A stretch of 63,115 nt of DNA, filler included. It is 17 parts of 17 records of this genome, joined end to end, with 100 filler letters (N's around TTAATTAATTAA, not from the genome) between each part and the next. Parts side by side here need not be neighbours in the genome. Positions count along the whole stretch, not along the records: positions 20,801 to 24,022 come from SRR15195285_15934; 16 more parts are not named here. One strand, 5' to 3'. The notes beneath the pieces were generated by a model that was not told the origin of the DNA, ran no database searches, and saw nothing but the letters and a program-made list of their open reading frames with translations. Below are positions 3,189 through 49,371 of this stretch, piece by piece. Both the position numbers and the translations under genes were made by a program. Position 1 is the first letter of the stretch, and every line of letters begins with the position of its first letter.

Positions 3189-3288
3189 NNNNNNNNNNNN
3201 NNNNNNNNNNNNNNNNNNNNNNNNNNNNNNNNTTAATTAATTAANNNNNNNNNNNNNNNNNNNNNNNNNNNNNNNNNNNNNNNNNNNN
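3189..3288. other. Artificial contig-joining spacer (first of 16)
   Basis: 44 N + TTAATTAATTAA (stops in all six frames) + 44 N. Identical spacers at 6537-6636, 10076-10175, 13420-13519, 16907-17006, 20701-20800, 24023-24122, 27397-27496, 31508-31607, 36020-36119, 39215-39314, 42872-42971, 46343-46442, 52629-52728, 56250-56349, 59514-59613. Confidence 0.99.
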
Positions 3289-20590: not shown

Positions 20591-20895
20591 GAAGTAGGTG
20601 GAACGGGTCGCCCGTAAGCTCGAGTAGCGCCTCGCGTACCGCAGGCCCATGTGGCGCCTTGCGTTTTGTTCCACGGCCTCGTGGTAGCGCCATTGTTGCG
20701 NNNNNNNNNNNNNNNNNNNNNNNNNNNNNNNNNNNNNNNNNNNNTTAATTAATTAANNNNNNNNNNNNNNNNNNNNNNNNNNNNNNNNNNNNNNNNNNNN
20801 GGAACAGTGCCTTTCTCAGTACTGAAGAGGCGCCCTAGTGCATACCGTGCATTTGCACCATGGCGCCAATGCCCCGTCTCACCATCATAGATCTG

Positions 20896-21074
20896 GAAAT
20901 CGGGTTTTGGGGAGTGCTTTGAAATCGGGTTTTGGGGAGATTTTGAAATCGGGTTTACGGGAAAAAGCCGAAAAACGGGTTTTCATAATTATATCCCCAT
21001 AGAAATTTTAAAAAATTTCAGATGGGGTCTACAGTGTATTATGACTGACCACCGAAATAATTACCGATTATTTC
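20896..21074. repeat. AT-rich element: tandem 24-25-bp repeats plus two hairpins
   Basis: GAAATCGGGTTT x3 plus a degenerate fourth copy (20896-20983). Hairpins CCCCATAGAAATTTT/AAAATTTCAGATGGGG (20995-21027) and GAAATAAT/ATTATTTC (about 21055-21075). Confidence 0.7.
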
Positions 21075-21270
21075 CAGCACCGTACACCCCAGCTTCAGAG
21101 GGCGCGCAAACGCGTTAACCTCGCCCCCCCTCGCGGCAATTAGGCTTGTCGTATAGTTGACTCTGCCTTACTTGTTCCCCAAACCTATCAGCAACGCGTT
21201 GCTGATAGCTTCGGTGCAGCCTCCTCGTCAGTCGTCTTGGCCGGCAGTACGTGCAGTTCCAGGGACGCAC

Positions 21271-23907
21271 CTAACTTGGGCAGCCAGGGCAGCCAGGGCA
21301 CCAGGTGCAGCTTTTGTAGCAGAGGCCGTGGCGATCGCAGGTGCTCGTGCTGTTCATCACGCACTCGCTAAACCACTCGAGGTCGTGGCTGCCATCCTCG
21401 TTAAGGTGGGATAGCCCGACGGCCTTGCCGGTTGTCACGAAGAACGACAGCGCGTCGGCCTTCGTCGGCTCCGCCGGCCACGGGAACTGAGCCCTGCGAG
21501 CAACGAGCAAAGTCTAAGTGCTAAGTAGAGCTCAGGAGAGAACACACTGGCACTGTCTGCAACCTTCAGTGTGTGCTCAGGCGGGCTACTCACGCTGTGG
21601 CGAAGGCCTCATACATGTCCCAGCACAACAGCAGTGGGTAGTACCTGCTCCACACAATACGTACAGCCACAATGGACATTAGCTCCCAGCTCCCAAAAAC
21701 ACTTCTGAGGCGGATTGCGCGGAATAGGTACACAGCCAGCTTCGCCACCTCGATCCGCTGGTGCGCTGCGCCATTCGTCACGGCCGAGGCACGCTTGAAG
21801 GCCTCCGCGCCGCTGAGGAGCGTCACGGGCGTCAGGAACTCTCTGCCCGAGCCGACGAAGCTCTCGCTCATGCTGCGAACCCGAACGAACATCATTGACA
21901 GGCTCAGTGGACGAAATAGCAGCACAATAGACACGCGCGATTGATTTGGCACAATGAGTTCAGTGCTCAGTCGAAGACCTGCGTTGACCCTTAGAGGCAA
22001 CGAGTTGACTCTACCTCAACACGATGCGATGAGGCATACTGTATAGTAGGGATGGATGCTTGTGAGCAGCTTACTAGTATCCTTTGTCGGCAATCGCCCC
22101 GTGCATGATGTCCATATACAGCCGCACGAACGGCGCCCCCTCCTCATAGTACGCCGCGAGGAACTCCGTGATCATCTCGCGGTCGTCCGCGCTCGGGTCC
22201 CACATCTGCTGCTGCGTGACGTATGCCTTCAGCGCGTCGAGGTCAGAGCCAGGGCCGTGGCCGTTGCCCTCTTCGAACATACCGGTCACGCCGTGGTCGA
22301 CGAAGGAACGGATGTTCGGCCTGCGAAAGACGCATCTATTTGTGAGTTTTCCCTATATTTGTCCCGAGCCTGTCTTGGAAAATGATCATTTTTAGTGTAA
22401 CATGGCGCAAAAGATGCGTTTTTCGCACCCGAGGACATAGTAGTTTGGAAAAGGCTGAACGAAGGCGCTGAAGTCTGTGATGTAGTTCCAAATGAAGGTG
22501 CGGTTAGAGATCGCCCTCCAGGCGTTCATGTCGGTGAGAAACTTCGCATTTGAGGGGTCGGTGAGCGGCGCCGCGAAATTGCATTCGATCGAGCAAAGGC
22601 GTACGACAACGTTGCTCCGCGGGGTCGTGATTTTGGGGGCTGGGCGCGTGTACCGATAGGCCAAGGTGTCGACAGCAACGTGCGGAAACTCCAGCTTGAT
22701 CGCGTCTGCAATCGTGTTAACAGCACGCAGCAGAGGCCCCATCGGGCTGCCCTCTGCATCCATTACCGCACGCTCGGCGGTGTCGTTACAGTACAGCCCG
22801 TTGTCGTTCTGGCTGACCGAGATGATCGTCGCGTTTGGCTGCGTCCGCAGAAAGCCCTTTACCTTCTTGGCGATGAAGCTCACTAGGCTGGCGTTGCTCC
22901 AGCACAACTGACCATACACCGTGCCGTCATTGCGGGGCCAAAACCACCTGCAGACGAGAAGATGAGTCAGCATGAGTCAGAATGACTCCAGCAGGGTGAG
23001 TTAGCAAGCAAGCGCACTCCGGATTCGCCTTGAAGAGTGCGGCGGGCGGCTGCTTGCCGCCGTTGGTCGCGGCCGTATCACCGAGCAGGCTGTAGCTCGT
23101 GTGCACGCCCCCCGGCGGGCTGGCATACTTCACACAACCGCCCGGCTTGTCCGTGTGATCGCAGTCGTTGTTGCCGTTCCGCACCTCCCAGAGCGTGTCG
23201 GCTGGCGCCGGGCCACCGTCGGTTTCGTAGCTCTCCAGCGTTCGAAACTCCATCTGAGGCCGGAACGTCACATCCACCGTCTTGCTCAGCGCTGCAGCAA
23301 GGCTGGTGGCGTTGGGCATCGTGGTTAAGTCGGGAGCGAAGAACCGAAAGCCCCACAGCCGGAGCAGCTGGTAAGCTGCGTAGATCGTCCCACGCTGCGA
23401 GCCTTCGCCGCCAGCGACAGCGATGAACCCCGGCTTGACGCCGCTTCGGCTGCTCGAGATCACAAAGCTCTCATTCCCAAGACCCATCAGCTGGTCGGCC
23501 GGCAGCCCACAGAAGCTCTCCGTCGCCGACCTGTAGCCGACCGCCAGGGTGGTGAGCCCGGGTCCGGTGGGGTTATAGCTCGTGATCGGGACGCTGCTCC
23601 CGGTGGCGTTTCCGATAAACCCGCTCAGCTCCTGCGCCGCCCACTGCTCGGCAGCGCTGCTCTGGCTATGGAGGTAGATGTTCACCTTTGGCGCCCTGTG
23701 GGCGGTGGACAGGAAGGTCAGTCAGCGCTGGTCCGTCCGCGCGCGGGGCTAGGCCCAGGCGCAGCAGGCAGGCCATGCAGCCAGGCAGCCAGGCAGCCAG
23801 CCAGCAGAAAGATGAGGGGGAGCGCACGTGAGTTCTGCGCCGTTGTTGAGGGGTACGGTGGCGGGTATCCCGGCGAGGAGGCAGGCCACGGCCGAGCGGA
23901 AGCGCAT
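21271..23907 (-). CDS. Secreted DUF4838-family protein (GH67-like N-terminal domain), 7 exons
   Basis: Signal peptide MRFRSAVACLLAG; AAQEL..FI..ATG, GTIYAAYQLLRLWGFRFFAPD, QLCWSN, ISVSQND, DTLAYRYT, RLCSIECNF, IWNYITDF...PFPN. Introns at 23696-23827, 22948-23017, 22321-22428, 21873-22074, 21645-21731 and 21494-21593 are all frame-consistent. Confidence 0.85.
22321..22428 (-). mobile_element. Introner-like element (MITE forming a spliceosomal intron)
   Basis: The intron G-TGCGAAAAACGCATCT...AGATGCGTCTTTCGCA-G has 15/16 terminal inverted repeats with a GG on both sides. Removal restores CTC GGG CCG (LGPNIR). Confidence 0.85.
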
Positions 23908-24154
23908 CGTGGTACCTTCAGTTGCGGCACCGGCGCGCGCGCGAGCGCACGCACGCCGCCGCGCGGCCGCGGCGGCGCCGCGCTCGCTGCACCAGCCTGC
24001 GCCAAACGCGTCGATCAGACTGNNNNNNNNNNNNNNNNNNNNNNNNNNNNNNNNNNNNNNNNNNNNTTAATTAATTAANNNNNNNNNNNNNNNNNNNNNN
24101 NNNNNNNNNNNNNNNNNNNNNNTCAACCTGCACACTTCACTGCTTTGCTTACAG

Positions 24155-25389: not shown

Positions 25390-27396
25390 TTAAGACGACA
25401 CAGCAGCCATAGCAGCAGCGTCGGCAGCTTCCTCGTGTACTACCCCAAGCCTACCACCTTCGAGATATTGCTTGCCATTGACCTCGATGGTAGGCGACAG
25501 GCATCGCAAGTGCACCCGGCGGTCCGCGCCCTCAGGTGGTGCCCAATTGTCCATTATCCCACGAAGCCGCAACTCTTCCTCCAGATCCGCGATGCGTGCA
25601 ATCGATCCGACCGTCACCATCCCTGTATACTTTGGTGGAAGTTTTTGCAGCGCTTCGTGACACCCTAGTTGCGGGCAAAAATTGGGCTTACTTACCAAAT
25701 TTTGCCCGCAACTAGGGTGTCACAAAGCGTTGGCACGAAAGTGGCTCCGTCAAACTTCTACCATCAGTCAAACTGCCGTTGTTCTGACACGTCAGTACAA
25801 TTCGAGAGGCATATTGACTTTCTCTCGAAAAATTGATTTCGTGTGATGCCTGTGGCAGTTTGAAAAGAGGGGCATTTCTCGGGTGCCAACCCGTTTAGCA
25901 TCTAAGACGGGAACCGACCTGCCGATTGTGGACTATCTGTGAGAAATCCGGTCAGCAGTGGCGTGCCAGCTAACAACACGAGCGCATGCCGCATTGCATT
26001 GTGATAATTACGTTTGGCGCCCTGCAATCTTGCTCGAGTGTTTTTCCAAGATTTTTCCCTTTTCCACGTGGGCTGCTAGTTTAGCTATGTCTGTGCTTTC
26101 TTTCGTATCGCCTGACATCGTTGCGTCAAGCTCTATTCGCTTCGCCATCTGCGTCCGAAAGCCTCCCGCCTAGAATTACACAGGAAACCTAAGAGCTTGC
26201 CATCAAGACGAGACAGCGGTTGCAAAGTGTTGCTCCTCTCCTTGTGCTCAGGGTCACTTACCTTGCGGGAATTCGCTGTAGTGTATGAGCCGGACTCCCT
26301 GAGCTGCACTTGCGCTACAGCCATTTTCGTCGGGTCACCTGAAGTCAAAGCTGGCGCTAATGCACCGATGGCTTTGGATACTTTGCTTGGAATATTCTCA
26401 AGATCTAGACGGGAACGCCATTGCAAGACGTCAGGCGTGGCCATGAGACACACTGTCACGACTTGCCATTGGTGTGGTAACGTGGAACGCACATATGTAG
26501 CGGTGGATGTAAAGCAGCTGGCAGTCTGTATGTGTCACCATCGTGTATCGATACGGCGACCCCGTCAGCACCTCAGCTTCACCCACCATGGAGCCCGCCC
26601 ACGCCATTTGAAATGTCGACTGTCGCACACTGTTTTTGTCCGCCACGAGCCCCTACACGTACAGTGCACGAGAGTGATGAAATTCACCGCATGCAGTACG
26701 TTAGCAGACACCGCACCTTGAGCTGGCCCTGCAACACCAGTACAACGTATTCTGGATGAGCCCCATCCATGAAAATCACTTCCCCACGTTTCGTCCATCG
26801 CTCACGCCCGAAAAGAGCCAGCTTGGCCAAACAGTCCTCCTCCACACTTGCGTACTGCCCAACGGCACATAGCTGATCGAGCAGCTTGAGTGTTGATCTT
26901 TCAATACATCTGTGGAACAGCTGGACGTCGGCTCTCGAGCTGATCTGGAGCAGCTCACATCGGCCCACAGCCCGGATGGTCGCTTGCGCGATGCCATCTT
27001 TCGACATGAAGGAATGTAGCGGATCGGAATCGACGTTGGCTGACATTGGTGAGATCATCCCAATTGCCTCAAATTCACCAAAGTATTCGCCTGGTGTGTA
27101 CGTCAGTACGGAAAGCACTTGTTCCTCGCCACTTGGGCTGAGTGCGTCGGCTTGCTTCTGTACAGATATCGGGTCAGAAGGGTGCGATTTATGTCGAGGC
27201 GAATGTGGCTTCCGCGCTGATGGTCCACCGTGTCCGCATGCACCCTGGCCACCACCACGAGTTCGTCTCGGTGTTTGCCCTGTTCGTTGTGATCTTCCTG
27301 TCTCCTTTCCTCTAGTTGAGATCCTCTGTGGCCCATTTCGAGTGGAGCCGTATGGGCTGCTTGCCATGAGCGTTGATGCAATTGATCTGGTATGTG
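25390..27396 (-). CDS. Cyclic-nucleotide-binding domain protein, multi-exon, 5'-truncated
   Basis: Two cNMP-binding domains: PGEYFGE...ATIRAVGRCELLQIS and RGEVIFMDG...VLQGQLK/AGSMVGEAEVL...YTMVTHTDCQLLYI. The 3' exon structure is tentative and is interrupted by the palindrome at 25657-25723. Confidence 0.7.
25657..25723. mobile_element. TGACA...TGTCA palindrome family, long copy D, within the putative last exon
   Basis: 29-bp arms GTGACACCCTAGTTGCGGGCAAAAATTGG / CCAAATTTTGCCCGCAACTAGGGTGTCAC (28/29) with a 9-nt loop. Termini are shared with copies A-C. Confidence 0.75.
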
Positions 27397-46670: not shown

Positions 46671-49371
46671 TCAAAGTGGACCCTGGCAGATCGTCGAAGC
46701 ACCACATTCCATCGTATCAGTAGCGGTCAAAGAGTCTAGGTCCCGTTTTGGGGCACAGCTGATAGAGCCATCGTTGCGAGCGATCGGGTTGTTGTTGCCC
46801 TTGATGTGACACGTCTTTCCACCAGTGAAGTCAGCGGCCTTGCAGCGCGGATTTGCCCAGCACAGAGCGCAGCACTCTTCTTTCGTTGTAGTCGCAACGC
46901 TGTCGATGTCACTGCCATACTGCCCAGTATTTTCTGACCAAGTGCAGTCTGTGCGAGGAGGTGGAAGTGGGCCATGGTGCTGATGCGCCGGGTCTGGACC
47001 CGAGTGGTCGCGAATGGCGCATTTGGTCTCTTCATATTGGCTCATGTTCACGCTATCGAGGAAGACATTGAGCAGGCCAAGCATGCGCTTGAACTCGGCT
47101 GGCTGCTCCTCACGTAAATTGTGCAGTTCGTTGTAGTCTTTGTCGAGATCGAACAGGAACATGTAGGACTCATTACTGTTGCGGCCATACTCGCTCCAGT
47201 TTTTCCATTCTGAGTACGGTGGTTGGAAATCACACTGACCCTTGCCAGGGTTGTGCACAAGCTTCATGTTGTTGTCGATGACGGTGTGCTGCCCGCCAGT
47301 GCAGTCGAAACCCAGCACCTTCGACCGTGGGACGTAGCCAGCGACCGCTCCTTGGGACTGCAGCATCCCCGTCGAGATTGTTGGAGAGGCTTGCAGGAGC
47401 GGGACTGCGGTGTATACCAACTAGTCAGAAACAAACCAGCAAAATTGAACGACACAACAACCGAGAATCCGGAGCAACCAAACGTTGCAAGCCGAATCCT
47501 TTGCGTGCAGCATGTCTGATTGTTCTGCTACAGTTGGTCTAACATGCGAGGCAGGCACTTACTCAAATCAATCCCATCCATGACCCAGGTCGGATTATCA
47601 CTCTCCACCTGGAATATCGACATGATAGTCGGAAGGAAATCGGCAGTCGTCGTTGGTGTGGAAATGTTTTTGTTCTCCAAGATGACCCAGGGAATGTGCA
47701 CCATGCCGGGCACTCGAATGCCGCCCTCCCAAGAGGATGCTTTACACTAATTCATTTGCAAATCAATCAATCCGTATTTCCAACGTCTCAGTGAGGGCCA
47801 GTATCGGAGCAGAGCCAGTTATGCAAGGAAAGGGGATTTCAGACCTGGCGTAGGTGTCCTGTCGAATAGCGAATGTCTGCGCGCTCGATTCCTTGGTGTG
47901 CACCATTGTCCTACAGTGCGGTCAGCCCACTTGAGTTCAGGATATACGGTAGCGTATCAGTTGAACAGGTGAGCGGGCGGGGTCTGTATGAGCAAGAGGA
48001 GGCAACACTTACGGCTGTGTAGAAAATTGCCGTCTTGTCTGCCACGTTTTTTTCTTTCAGCATGCTCATCAGGCGACCGATTTGGACATCCCACATCGTC
48101 AGCGCGCCCAGGTAGTCAGGGTCGCGGTAGTTCGGGTCACCGCGGTTCGTCCCTGGGGTGGCGTACATGTTCCAGAACTCGGGCATCGCTGGGTGTGGCT
48201 CATGAATTGCATGAAAGCAGATATGTGCCAGCCACGGGTTGGCCGCAGCGATCTGCTTGGTGAGGAACAGCTCGAAGCGGTCGATCAGGAAGGTCGAATC
48301 ATCGCCAGGGACTTTGGTGGACTCCGAAAGCGCAGAGACACCACGTGGGTCGGAAGCGTTCGGATAGAAATAGTCGGTGCATGGGTAACACCAATCGCTC
48401 TTGAAGCCGCTGCCGACGACGCACTGGTCGCCAAGCGGACGCAAATCATCGTACCCACCATTGGGCTTGCGGCCGGGGTGGGTGTGATTCTTCGGGAAGC
48501 AGCCGCAGTTTGTCATGGAATTGGAAGCTTCTGCTTGGGTCGTCATCCAATCATCAAACCCGTGCTTGCCTGGGTCACTGACGGACCACTTCTCGGGCGA
48601 CATACCCGGGAGCTTCTTGTCCCAGAGGTCGCCCAGGTGCTGCGGCGCATGGCAACCCGGCAGTCAGAGCGAGGCCGAGACACACGTGACATGCAGGACA
48701 TCCTACAATCACCACGGGAGATTAATGGAGGGCTCGGGAAGGAGGTACCCATTTTCCGAGTTGGACCGTGCTGTACTTGCCGAGCTTGGACTTCTTTGCC
48801 GCCTTAGCGATGGTGAACTCTTCCCATGGGAGCGCGCCGTTCTTTCCCTGAGAGCACGTGTCAGCGACGTTCTCCTGACAGCATGGCAGCGCCGAGTCGA
48901 TGCAGTCACGATTGTTCGTACCTGCGAGCAGGTATCGGCCACGTTCTCGGAGCAGCAAGGCAGAGCAGAGTCGATGCAGTCGCGGTTGTTCGTACGGCCG
49001 GTGAGGTATGCCGCGCGGGTCGGGCTGCACACGGAAGCGGCGGCGTAGAACCGGTGCAGGAGTGCGGTGTGCGGGTCTTGTGCGAAGGCCTTAATGTTGG
49101 GCGTGTGGGCGCAGCACTGCCCAGCGTTGGTAGCACATGTACTGTTGTCACAGTTGAACTCATTGTCACCCCAACCTTGGTCGTCGGTCCTGTAGGCCAA
49201 CAGCCGCAGTGAGTGGGCGCACACGGTGCGGATAGCTTTCCGGGTTCCGACGGCGGTGCCAGCGGCAGAGCAGGTTGAGGCTTACAGCAGCGTGATGACG
49301 TTGGGCTGCGCCGGCGGCGTAGCAGCACGGCAGACGGTCGCCAAGCCAGCGTACACAGCGGCGAGCTTCAT
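46671..49371 (-). CDS. Secreted formylglycine-dependent sulfatase with a C-terminal PAN/Apple domain, multi-exon
   Basis: PNVITLL/TDDQGWGD, CSPTRAAYLTGR, GKW/HLG, HEPHP, YTA/DNG, KASSWEGGIRVP, DFLPT, LFDLDKD.NE..NL; PAN module ECCALCWANPRCKA...CHIK. Introns include 49190-49285 and 48640-48748. Confidence 0.92.
48848..48995 (-). repeat. 74-nt tandem duplication of sulfatase coding sequence; each copy is bounded by GT...AG
   Basis: 48922-48995 encodes TNNRDCIDSALPCCSENVADTCSQ and 48848-48921 encodes TNNRDCIDSALPCCQENVADTCSQ. Confidence 0.92.

Follow-up and report, generated by a model that had tools for sequence, protein, structure and literature searches.

The 108-nt intron at 22321-22428 on the minus strand of the window (the whole 63,115-base stretch of DNA analysed here) very probably derives from a MITE-like, non-autonomous DNA transposon, approximately 106 nt long, that inserted into a DUF4838 gene within a coding exon and duplicated GG. 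The host gene encodes a sugar-degrading enzyme of an uncultured marine protist. The making of an intron by a mobile element with its own splicing signals is a known way of intron gain, and such elements, termed introners, are known in approximately 200 species. To our knowledge, they are the only process that can add introns by the thousand.

The element and the intron share their boundaries

The host gene was modelled with seven exons and a CDS of 1,938 nt, in which the single stop codon lies at the terminus. The features of the gene, the intron and the element are as follows.

21271..23907, minus strand: host gene, 7 exons, 645 aa, DUF4838, with a predicted signal-peptide-like N-terminus
22429..22947, minus strand: exon 3, matching DUF4838 profile positions 81-254 (Pfam E 2.3e-57)
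22075..22320, minus strand: exon 4, matching DUF4838 profile positions 256-325 (Pfam E 7.1e-16)
23827-23696 and 23017-22948, minus strand: other introns, predicted by the gene model
22074-21873, 21731-21645 and 21593-21494, minus strand: other introns, supported by an RNA contig
22321..22428, minus strand: spliced intron, 108 nt, GT..AG, equal to the element plus one G per side; from the RNA contig joint
22322..22427, minus strand: mobile element, 106 nt, TGCG...CGCA; from BLAST bounds and the family profile
22409..22427, minus strand: 5' terminal inverted repeat (TIR) arm in gene orientation, its first T being the T of the GT donor (GTGCGA)
22322..22340, minus strand: 3' TIR arm, a pyrimidine-rich stretch and CGCA, the last A of which is the A of the AG acceptor
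22428..22429, minus strand: upstream GG copy, putative target-site duplication; from the sequence and family flanks
22320..22321, minus strand: downstream GG copy; from the sequence and family flanks
22358..22378, minus strand: core CCAAGACAGGCTCGGGACAAA, the most conserved part; from the depth peak and exact copies in metagenome loci
22342..22346, minus strand: CTCAC, putative branch point, with its A 22 nt from the 3' splice site

Among the five other introns of the gene, two begin with GTGCGC and two finish with TCGCAG.

The minus strand reads ...CTCGG/GTGCGAAAAACGCATCTTTTGCG...CACAAATAGATGCGTCTTTCGCAG/GCCGAAC..., with GG on each side of the element. Base 22429 is the final base of exon 3 and 22428 the initial base of the intron, whilst 22321 closes the intron and 22320 opens exon 4. 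GT..AG splicing yields CTC GGG CCG, the L-G-P that an earlier note on this DNA, made from its letters, had said would be restored. Translated in frame, the 108-nt intron runs into a stop after 11 codons. With the element plus 2 nt taken out, the reading frame stays colinear with the Pfam profile. Because exons 3 and 4 match the profile up to position 254 and then from 256, removal of the intron leaves DUF4838 without insertion or deletion.

The earlier note had described the intron as a TIR element between GG flanks, with inverted repeats matching at 15/16 positions and extending to about 22 bp, and this description was confirmed. Repeat search found arms of 19 nt that are 89% complementary, and by eye the match extends to approximately 23 nt (20/23). 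When the 63,115 bases were searched for the 16-mer TGCGAAAAACGCATCT with up to three mismatches allowed, only the two arms were found, one perfect and the other with 1 mismatch (2 matches against 0.66 expected). The five other introns had been said to lack such repeats; their ends match each other at 8-12 of 25 positions, compared with 17/25 for the element. The GC content of the element is 0.42 against 0.58 for exon 3. On folding of the intron RNA the two ends pair, at -27.7 kcal/mol (z = -3.5). An Rfam search of 22200-22550 gave no match at E up to 1, and repeat searches of the window found no other relevant repeat family.

It is very improbable that this is an ordinary older intron with a chance hairpin, or a MITE lodged inside a pre-existing intron. 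The gene does contain five other, ordinary introns, with the recurrent starts and ends given above. However, the ends of the element are the intron boundaries to the nucleotide, the site is intron-free in most homologues, and the chance of a 15/16 match between both ends of one 108-nt intron is about 1e-8 by our own arithmetic. The exact boundaries together with the intron-free homologues contradict both the chance hairpin in an old intron and the MITE in a pre-existing one.

Under the favoured transposon reading, the element would have inserted at a GG within the coding exon and duplicated it. The donor G/GTGCGA would combine the upstream G with the first T of the element, and the acceptor CGCAG/G the last A of the element with the downstream G. 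As the ends TGCG...CGCA lie between GG copies, the spliceosome would take out the element plus one GG copy and give back the original codons. Read forwards, the inverted repeat would act as the 5' splice site; as its reverse complement, it would supply CTCA(A/C) resembling a branch point, a stretch rich in pyrimidines, and CAG. Since the repeat could serve both roles, introns may form from either orientation of the element, provided that the sense strand reads GG. No empty site was seen in the DNA or the loci, so it is the direct flanks and the intact reading frame that point to a GG duplication; as the GG flank is invariant, duplication is not fully separable from preference for a fixed target. 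Beyond this, we infer a transposase of the cut-and-paste type, the branch point and when the element inserted.

The intron is absent from an RNA contig

One oligo-dT RNA contig (X16 record 17, 709 nt) joins 22319 to 22428 and skips exactly 108 nt, in line with the splicing proposed in the earlier note. The joint corresponds to CT..AC on the plus strand with the cut at +1 (22320-22427/22321-22428). The same contig skips three further introns of the gene, and its joint 21872/22075 sets the 3' boundary of exon 4. In DNA, the contig X1 record 4 (631 nt, 1 mismatch) spans the element. The RNA evidence comes from this single contig, which differs from the window at 13 of 610 letters (2.1%); given this divergence, its joint could instead come from a strain without the element. 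No DNA contig with the joint, and hence no element-free allele, was found in the two DNA runs (X1 and X2).

The element belongs to a dispersed family

A metagenome scan with the 21-nt core yielded at least 133 contig stretches with at least 176 exact-core copies. The family profile gave at least 294 matches in the 117,041 nt of these loci. The element is thus multi-copy, as the earlier note had expected. When the window was compared with these loci by BLAST, all 180 of the matches listed lay inside 22314-22438, with their ends clustered at 22319-22322 and 22427-22430. The flanks of the metagenome copies are unrelated to the window, as none of these 180 listed matches fell outside the element. 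In an alignment of 146 copies among the matches listed, conservation begins at GGT. Summed depth over 22313-22420 was 497, 2299, 581 and 360 in four runs, compared with 1-14 in adjoining bins, and in the four runs a depth peak with loose ends was found around 22339-22391. A viral contig collection searched with the core gave no stretches.

Among the matches listed, 35 copies aligned end to end. Termini of TGCG..CGCA were present in 21/35, and the flanks were GG/GG in 23 and CC/CC in 5. Considering one base per side in core orientation, 31/35 had G/G (24) or C/C (7) flanks. An all-against-all comparison of the loci among the matches listed returned four trivial self-overlaps of one contig and no empty-site pair.

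Sampling of identity within the family was very sparse; nearest-neighbour identity for 137 copies among the matches listed was 86.7% at the median and 97.1% at most. Some pairs among the matches listed are 95-97% identical, whilst the copy in the window is 87.8% identical to the closest of the listed copies. The window holds one copy in 63 kb, covering profile positions 1-108 (E 1.1e-26). The earlier note had proposed an active or recent introner family. The introner family is upheld by these results but its activity or recency is not, given the one copy in 63 kb, the 87.8% identity and the lack of an element-free DNA allele in two DNA runs.

Family copies carry splice signals in both orientations

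Intron properties were assessed in 136 de-duplicated copies with defined ends among the matches listed. GT..AG was found at the termini of 98 copies in core-sense orientation and 16 in antisense (5 in both), and 27 had neither, these 27 being judged at extrapolated ends. Of the sense copies among the matches listed, 58/92 restored phase after removal, with 18 and 16 in the two wrong phases. Antisense copies among the matches listed failed the same test, with only 2/13 in phase. All nine antisense copies of subfamily A (symmetric-end) among the matches listed have GT..AG on the other strand (9/9), seven with GTGCG.. donors and two with GTAGGG... At one locus, L068, the junction after removal joins a Zn-finger-like motif. 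In about 73/137 family copies among the matches listed, a position tally found CTCA[ACT] at a distance of 24-30 nt from the 3' end.

Two other measures were non-discriminating. Any frame remained open after removal in 91/98 of the matches listed, against 81 and 74 when the acceptor was shifted by 1 or 2 nt. Removal of all predicted elements from the multi-copy loci listed gave modest and irregular gains in the longest ORF.

An RNA route of spread (reverse splicing or intron transposition), with the inverted ends kept since end pairing helps splicing, is improbable. It would fit the strong pairing of the intron ends in RNA and the strong core-sense skew (98 vs 16 among the matches listed). The arms also fit better within a copy (7.8) than between copies (5.6), with 0/1000 permutations reaching the observed value among the matches listed, but this co-variation may also stem from subfamily structure. 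Antisense copies still make GT..AG introns, and the G/G or C/C flanks of the listed end-to-end copies fit DNA insertion either way, not reverse splicing. Long terminal inverted repeats with a short direct flank are, moreover, hallmarks of class II elements and count against an RNA route.

Homologues differ in intron presence at the insertion site

The earlier note had suggested that orthologues be checked for the intron, and it is absent from the site in 11 of the 14 DUF4838 homologues readable across it. The element is carried by P0123 (98% identical) and P0173 (61%), and one homologue was cut. P0173 falls in the other clade of the tree, which was a quick, single-gene tree whose forks are open. 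It has a complete element of the family at precisely the same codon. The nearest homologues in both clades are without the intron. The elements of the window and P0173 are both ordinary family members.

The shared codon position raises the alternative of an old insertion, made before two DUF4838 paralogue groups diverged and then lost precisely in most descendants, which would leave the copy in the window as a relic. We consider this rather unlikely, though well short of negligible. It would account for a full element at the same codon in P0173, only 61% identical in the exon and from the other clade, for the 87.8% identity of the window copy to its closest relative among the matches listed and for its being the only copy in 63 kb. 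On the other hand, it needs several precise losses, where independent insertion needs two gains, as the nearest homologues in both clades lack the intron (11/14). At 61% protein identity an unconstrained intron should be unrecognisable, yet both copies are ordinary; some family pairs are 95-97% identical among the matches listed; and the tree that would support an old insertion is the quick single-gene one with open forks.

Independent insertion is part of a wider proposal that we put forward only tentatively: an undescribed introner family in heterotrophic picoeukaryotes resembling Picozoa, with a palindromic two-way splice terminus, a GG-duplicating transposase and independent hits on the same codon in diverged paralogues. 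If this is true, the same codon was struck independently in two paralogues, and the insertion site would then be a strongly preferred one. The homologues form a natural presence/absence series within one gene family that includes a second hit at the same codon, making insertion-site preference versus loss testable.

Comparison with known introners

In combining a 2-bp flank of fixed dinucleotide with TIRs, the family resembles Tc1/mariner-type MITEs, which duplicate TA with TIRs; here the dinucleotide is GG. Its likeness to the introners of Micromonas and Aureococcus, drawn in the earlier note, holds for the kind of element but not for the arrangement of the splice sites, which here use a 2-nt GG with one G per site.

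According to the available part of PMC11282704, the duplication of Micromonas pusilla IE1 is 3 nt long and provides the 3' AG, and the complete 5' GT/GC lies within the element. Like the present family, IE1 is short, MITE-like and bounded by TIRs and a short duplication, and the element is spliced with one duplicate so that the mRNA is unchanged. Compared by description only, the present family differs in its 2-nt GG and in splice dinucleotides that are each half target and half element.

Several classes of introner-like element (ILE) in Polarella glacialis are also similar, as described in the available part of bioRxiv 10.1101/2020.10.14.339549. Classes 6, 8 and 10, which are likened there to Aureococcus anophagefferens, have an 8-nt cut site, GHN6, and carry one splice site whole whilst the other comes from the duplication. 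The 98 core-sense versus 16 antisense copies among our matches listed are in keeping with this group, but, compared by description only, our duplication is 2 nt and both splice sites are split between target and element. For class 12, the duplication's terminal G and the element's initial base can together form the 5' site, and in class 14 both splice sites come from an AGGH duplication. Splice sites are thus partly built from target sequence in these two classes as in ours; their duplications are 4-5 nt, unlike the symmetric 2-nt GG with one G per site found here.

The available parts of Gozashti et al. 2022 (PMC9860276) describe family 4 of Acanthoeca sp., a Tara MAG, with clear TIRs and an example intron of 109 nt (positions 451-559). 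Both features resemble ours, and its host, a marine heterotroph, is represented solely by a metagenome-assembled genome. Compared by description only, family 4 differs in being reported without a target-site duplication. Because invariant flanks are indistinguishable from duplication in that work, family 4 could be the present family, a comparison that is again by description only. Emiliania huxleyi fam24 is likewise scored with a 2-nt target-site duplication in the available part of Dataset S2 of Gozashti et al. 2025 (PMC12130899), but it has 10-bp terminal direct repeats, is classed as 'co-opt 5' carry 3'' and is without TIRs.

The core and terminus motifs were absent, save for unrelated primers, from the available texts of the introner papers. 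The available supplement spreadsheets of PMC9860276 and PMC12130899 contained no element sequences, TGCG/CGCA termini or 'Picozoa'. As the 2022 survey took in 520 Tara Oceans genomes (PMC9860276, available part), the family may already be catalogued.

The introner family is probably undescribed, and so probably is the occurrence of introners in its host group. Each well-documented family shows how a transposon turns invisible to host proteins. This one offers a compact example, with 106 nt, splice dinucleotides half from target and half from element, and function in both orientations.

The host may be a picozoan

A quick aminotransferase tree grouped the window with environmental proteins and Emiliania huxleyi (57% identity), in a clade of 13 rows (SH-aLRT 98). 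This tree is insufficient for placing the host and conflicts mildly with the hint of a picozoan from DUF4838. A GH31 search gave two matches, which carried no taxonomic information. We tentatively assign the host to Picozoa, whose genomes are known only from fragments and for which we know of no introners on record. If a picozoan host is confirmed, transposon-driven intron gain reaches an uncultured, plastid-lacking relative of red algae.

An intron of probable transposon origin

The 108-nt intron at 22321-22428 is very probably an introner, an intron made by a transposon with terminal inverted repeats (TIRs). The earlier note's interpretation is supported, in that exactly 108 nt are absent from an RNA contig, the element belongs to a multi-copy family bounded at its termini, and most homologues lack the intron. 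The chief points of interest are a probable second insertion at the same site and a possible new host phylum. The gene concerned is:

Host gene: 23907-21271, minus strand; DUF4838 gene of seven exons, joined frame 1,938 nt with one terminal stop

Both the intron edges that had been quoted (minus strand, ...CTCGG, then GTGCGAAAAACGCATCTTTTGCG...AGATGCGTCTTTCGCAG, then GCCGAAC...) and the inverted repeat were borne out, the 16-mer arm occurring in the window only at the two arms (0 and 1 mismatch). A repeat search placed the arms at 22322-22340 and 22409-22427 (19 nt, 89% complementary), and in RNA folding the two intron ends paired (-27.7 kcal/mol, z = -3.5). The gene's other five introns had been described as free of TIRs, and their ends matched at only 8-12 of 25 positions compared with 17 of 25 in the element intron. 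GC content was 0.42 in the element intron versus 0.50-0.71 in the other introns and 0.58 in exon 3. Exons 3 and 4 matched Pfam DUF4838 positions 81-254 (E 2.3e-57) and 256-325 (E 7.1e-16), respectively. The split Gly codon is position 255, so removal of 108 nt leaves neither gap nor insertion. Unspliced read-through of the intron meets a stop after 11 codons.

A 709-nt contig from an oligo-dT RNA run (X16 record 17) skipped exactly these 108 nt (GT..AG, minus strand) together with three further introns of the gene. It shows 13 differences from the window in 610 letters and is either a spliced transcript or an allele without the element; both give exactly the predicted empty site. The element was spanned by a DNA contig (X1 record 4, 631 nt, 1 mismatch), and no contig of the joined, element-free form was found in DNA runs X1 or X2. 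A contig from another RNA library (X14 record 14) passed from exon 4 into the element, and represents unspliced RNA or else carried-over DNA.

Four other introns of the gene (23827-23696, 23017-22948, 22074-21873 and 21593-21494) resemble the element termini, two beginning GTGCGC and two ending TCGCAG. The homologue from SAG31, a picozoan single-cell genome, seemingly enters a GTGCGC-type donor (tail ...FQEG, then PVRKD). Either the element mimics the host splice consensus or these introns are decayed old copies.

Presence and absence in homologues

Searching with the exon 3 protein gave 65 relatives. One of them, P0123 (98% identical, with 21 member sequences), closes with ...NYYVLGCEKRIFCAMLH, an unspliced open reading frame (ORF) entering the same element, which indicates that these ORF calls keep introns in. 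As regards conservation of the site, 11 of the 14 homologues reaching it read straight on (..YY.LG PN(I/V)...) with no intron, including SAG22 (72% identity), SAG31 (60%) and COSAG05 (59%); another ORF is cut at the site. Absence from most homologues indicates that the position is not an ancient conserved one.

The homologue P0173 (61% identical) reads ...NYYVLG, then CGNHLFGVPFGTKCRSFYQDRLGANIGKLRQKVFLQ, with exon 4 following in a different frame. Directly behind NYYVLG, at the very codon where the window gene carries its element, residues 106-141 of P0173 are a full family copy. Of the 137 translated family copies among the matches listed, 85 were matched by the P0173 tail, the best match (E 3e-8) covering element positions 8-100. 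The element was found in P0123 and P0173 only, out of 187 proteins examined. In a quick tree P0173 fell in a 5-row clade (SH-aLRT 98) with intron-free SAG31 and COSAG05-type proteins; the window gene and P0123 fell in another group with SAG22 and P0145, both intron-free. We favour the reading that the same codon was probably struck twice, once in the window gene and once in P0173. A single strike long ago would also place both copies at one codon, but followed by several losses, and is rather unlikely.

Copy number of the family

The window itself contains one copy of the element, and a relaxed profile search added none. Beyond the window, the expectation of many copies was confirmed: the 21-nt core, the element's most conserved stretch, matched at least 133 JGI metagenome contig stretches holding at least 176 exact-core copies. 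When the whole window was compared by BLAST with the 133 matches listed, all 180 hits lay inside 22314-22438 (median identity 83%), with hit ends concentrated at 22319-22322 and 22427-22430. Searching the 117,041 nt of listed loci with a profile made from 21 full-length copies gave at least 294 copies, and 86 of the 133 listed loci carried two or more (maximum eight). No match to the core was found in the viral collection or Rfam, nor any mention of it in the literature texts searched.

When contigs of four runs were mapped at an 80% likeness threshold, depth over 22313-22420 summed to 497, 2299, 581 and 360 versus 1-14 in adjoining bins, a figure that sums organisms and is not copy number. 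Contigs fitting only in part made up 45/61, 33/55, 60/82 and 33/47, respectively.

Among the matches listed, copies cluster, with up to 8 in 1.6-2 kb (e.g. loci L029, L044 and L074), mostly spaced 25-175 nt apart, and neighbouring pairs shared core orientation in 109 cases and opposed it in 52.

The claim that the family is recent or active in this lineage stands as a possibility only. The window holds 1 copy in 63 kb, which among the matches listed is 87.8% identical to its nearest sampled copy; across the 137 copies sampled there, the median nearest-neighbour identity was 86.7% and the highest 97.1%. The listed loci hold at least 294 copies in 117 kb, having been chosen for holding the core, and may come from another genome of the same group.

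Family anatomy, flanks and orientation

The family consensus starts GGTGCGAAAACG..., continues ...TTTTACCAAGACAGGCTCGGGACAAACATAGGGAAA..CTCAAAAAAG... and ends CGTTTT..CGCAGG. Among the matches listed, 21 of 35 end-to-end copies had TGCG...CGCA termini, and flanks were GG/GG in 23 and CC/CC in 5 (G/G or C/C in 31). Both flank types occurred with copies in core orientation, so it is the target, not the element, that supplies the flanks; as these are direct and not inverted repeats, they behave like a 2-nt GG duplication. The kept frame of the window gene, whose intron equals the element plus 2 nt, argues for the same duplication.

Of 136 de-duplicated listed copies with defined ends, 98 had terminal GT..AG when read in core sense and 16 when read antisense, with 5 counted in both readings and 27 in neither. 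With flanking frames picked by openness and GC3, removal of 92 listed sense copies left 58 in phase and 18 and 16 in the two wrong phases. The test failed for antisense copies (2 of 13 listed in phase). In all 9 listed antisense copies of subfamily A the opposite strand gave GT..AG (GTGCG... in seven, GTAGGG... in two), and removal of the antisense copy in locus L068 joined a Zn-finger-like motif across the junction.

Subfamilies of the element (orientations among the matches listed)
A: symmetric TGCG(A/G)AAAACG...CGTTTTTCGCA; both orientations; includes the window copy
B: GTAAGAAAACG...CGTTTTCTTGCAG; sense orientation only; e.g. loci L034, L046, L080, L132
C: GTGAGTAAAAACGGTC...GACCGTTTTTCCTCAG; sense orientation only; loci L035, L044, L077, L101

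Splice signals are asymmetric and stronger in subfamilies B and C (donors GTAAG or GTGAGT, acceptors TTTTCCTCAG), and the left end of B resembles the right-arm complement less two bases, giving a stronger donor. Such signals, in sense orientation only, suggest that B and C termini are tuned for splicing.

Among the matches listed, about 73 of 137 copies read in sense had CTCA[ACT] 24-30 nt before the 3' end; read antisense, about 31 had it at about 21-24 nt. The looser CT[CG]A[ACT] within 10-42 nt of that end occurred in 84 sense and 34 antisense listed copies versus 21 in shuffled controls. In the window copy the A of CTCAC is 22 nt from the acceptor, and the motif is a putative branch point. 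Arms fitted better within listed copies (7.8) than between them (5.6; 0 of 1000 permutations reached the observed value), which may reflect subfamilies or selection on pairing.

Comparison with known introners

In its available text, the survey of Gozashti et al. 2025 (PMC12130899) gives 1,093 introner families in 201 species, most classifiable ones being TIR DNA transposons, and lists a 2-nt duplication for an Emiliania family. The accessible parts of Gozashti et al. 2022 (PMC9860276), which took in 520 Tara Oceans genomes, describe splice sites recruited wholly or partly from the duplication or neighbouring exon sequence, and, in Acanthoeca, a family that has inverted repeats, is scored 'no TSD' and is illustrated by an intron of 109 nt. 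In the portion available, a preprint (bioRxiv 10.1101/2020.10.14.339549) reports introns created in both orientations in Aureococcus and Polarella, and also a donor made of the last duplication G plus the first element base. In M. pusilla IE1, according to the available part of a review (PMC11282704), a 3-nt duplication supplies AG. Given these precedents, the mechanism belongs to a known kind. As far as checked, with published families compared by description, what is new is the layout (symmetric terminus, one G per GG copy), the sequence of the family and possibly the host group, though the family may already stand in the surveys' catalogues.

Source and host organism

Seventeen pieces make up the window, each about 3-6 kb long, with 16 linkers between them:

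Linkers: 3189-3288 and 15 further sites, e.g. 24023-24122; N44-TTAATTAATTAA-N44

It is thus a fragmented, metagenome-type assembly, and gene neighbourhood across linkers is meaningless. Public runs with the piece at 20801-24022 were marine or seawater metagenomes and metatranscriptomes, except one labelled rhizosphere metagenome. Glycoside hydrolases are abundant (GH10, GH28, GH31, GH32, DUF4838), alongside a sulfatase, MFS transporters and long uninterrupted ORFs. The carbohydrate-enzyme, sulfatase and MFS content suggests a heterotroph and fits a heterotrophic protist feeding on polysaccharides. The carbohydrate enzymes are of secreted type, and kinase-TIR-ankyrin and kinase-PARP fusions are also encoded.

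The only named DUF4838 relatives of the host gene were SAG22, SAG31 and COSAG05; according to the available text of a 2025 preprint, these are single-cell genomes of picozoans from Schön et al. 2021. For a window aminotransferase the grouping was instead with unnamed marine proteins and Emiliania huxleyi (57% identity). 'Picozoa-like' is a lead only, drawn from protein similarity. The literature searched gave no report pairing 'Picozoa' with 'introner', and the available parts of the supplementary tables of the 2022 and 2025 surveys do not mention Picozoa.

Other repeats

A near-perfect hairpin at 25648-25732 (38-nt arms, 92% complementary, 9-nt loop), single-copy in the window, has a loop region reading GGTAAGT (minus strand) and resembles a foldback or a MITE of another kind. 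The contig ends at 20801-20987 and 23933-24022 attracted extra contigs, raised summed depth (16-50) and loose ends in the mapped runs, suggesting that further repeats or GC-rich sequence of low complexity lie there. At 48847-48994, a coding-looking region contains two 74-nt units in tandem that are 81% alike.
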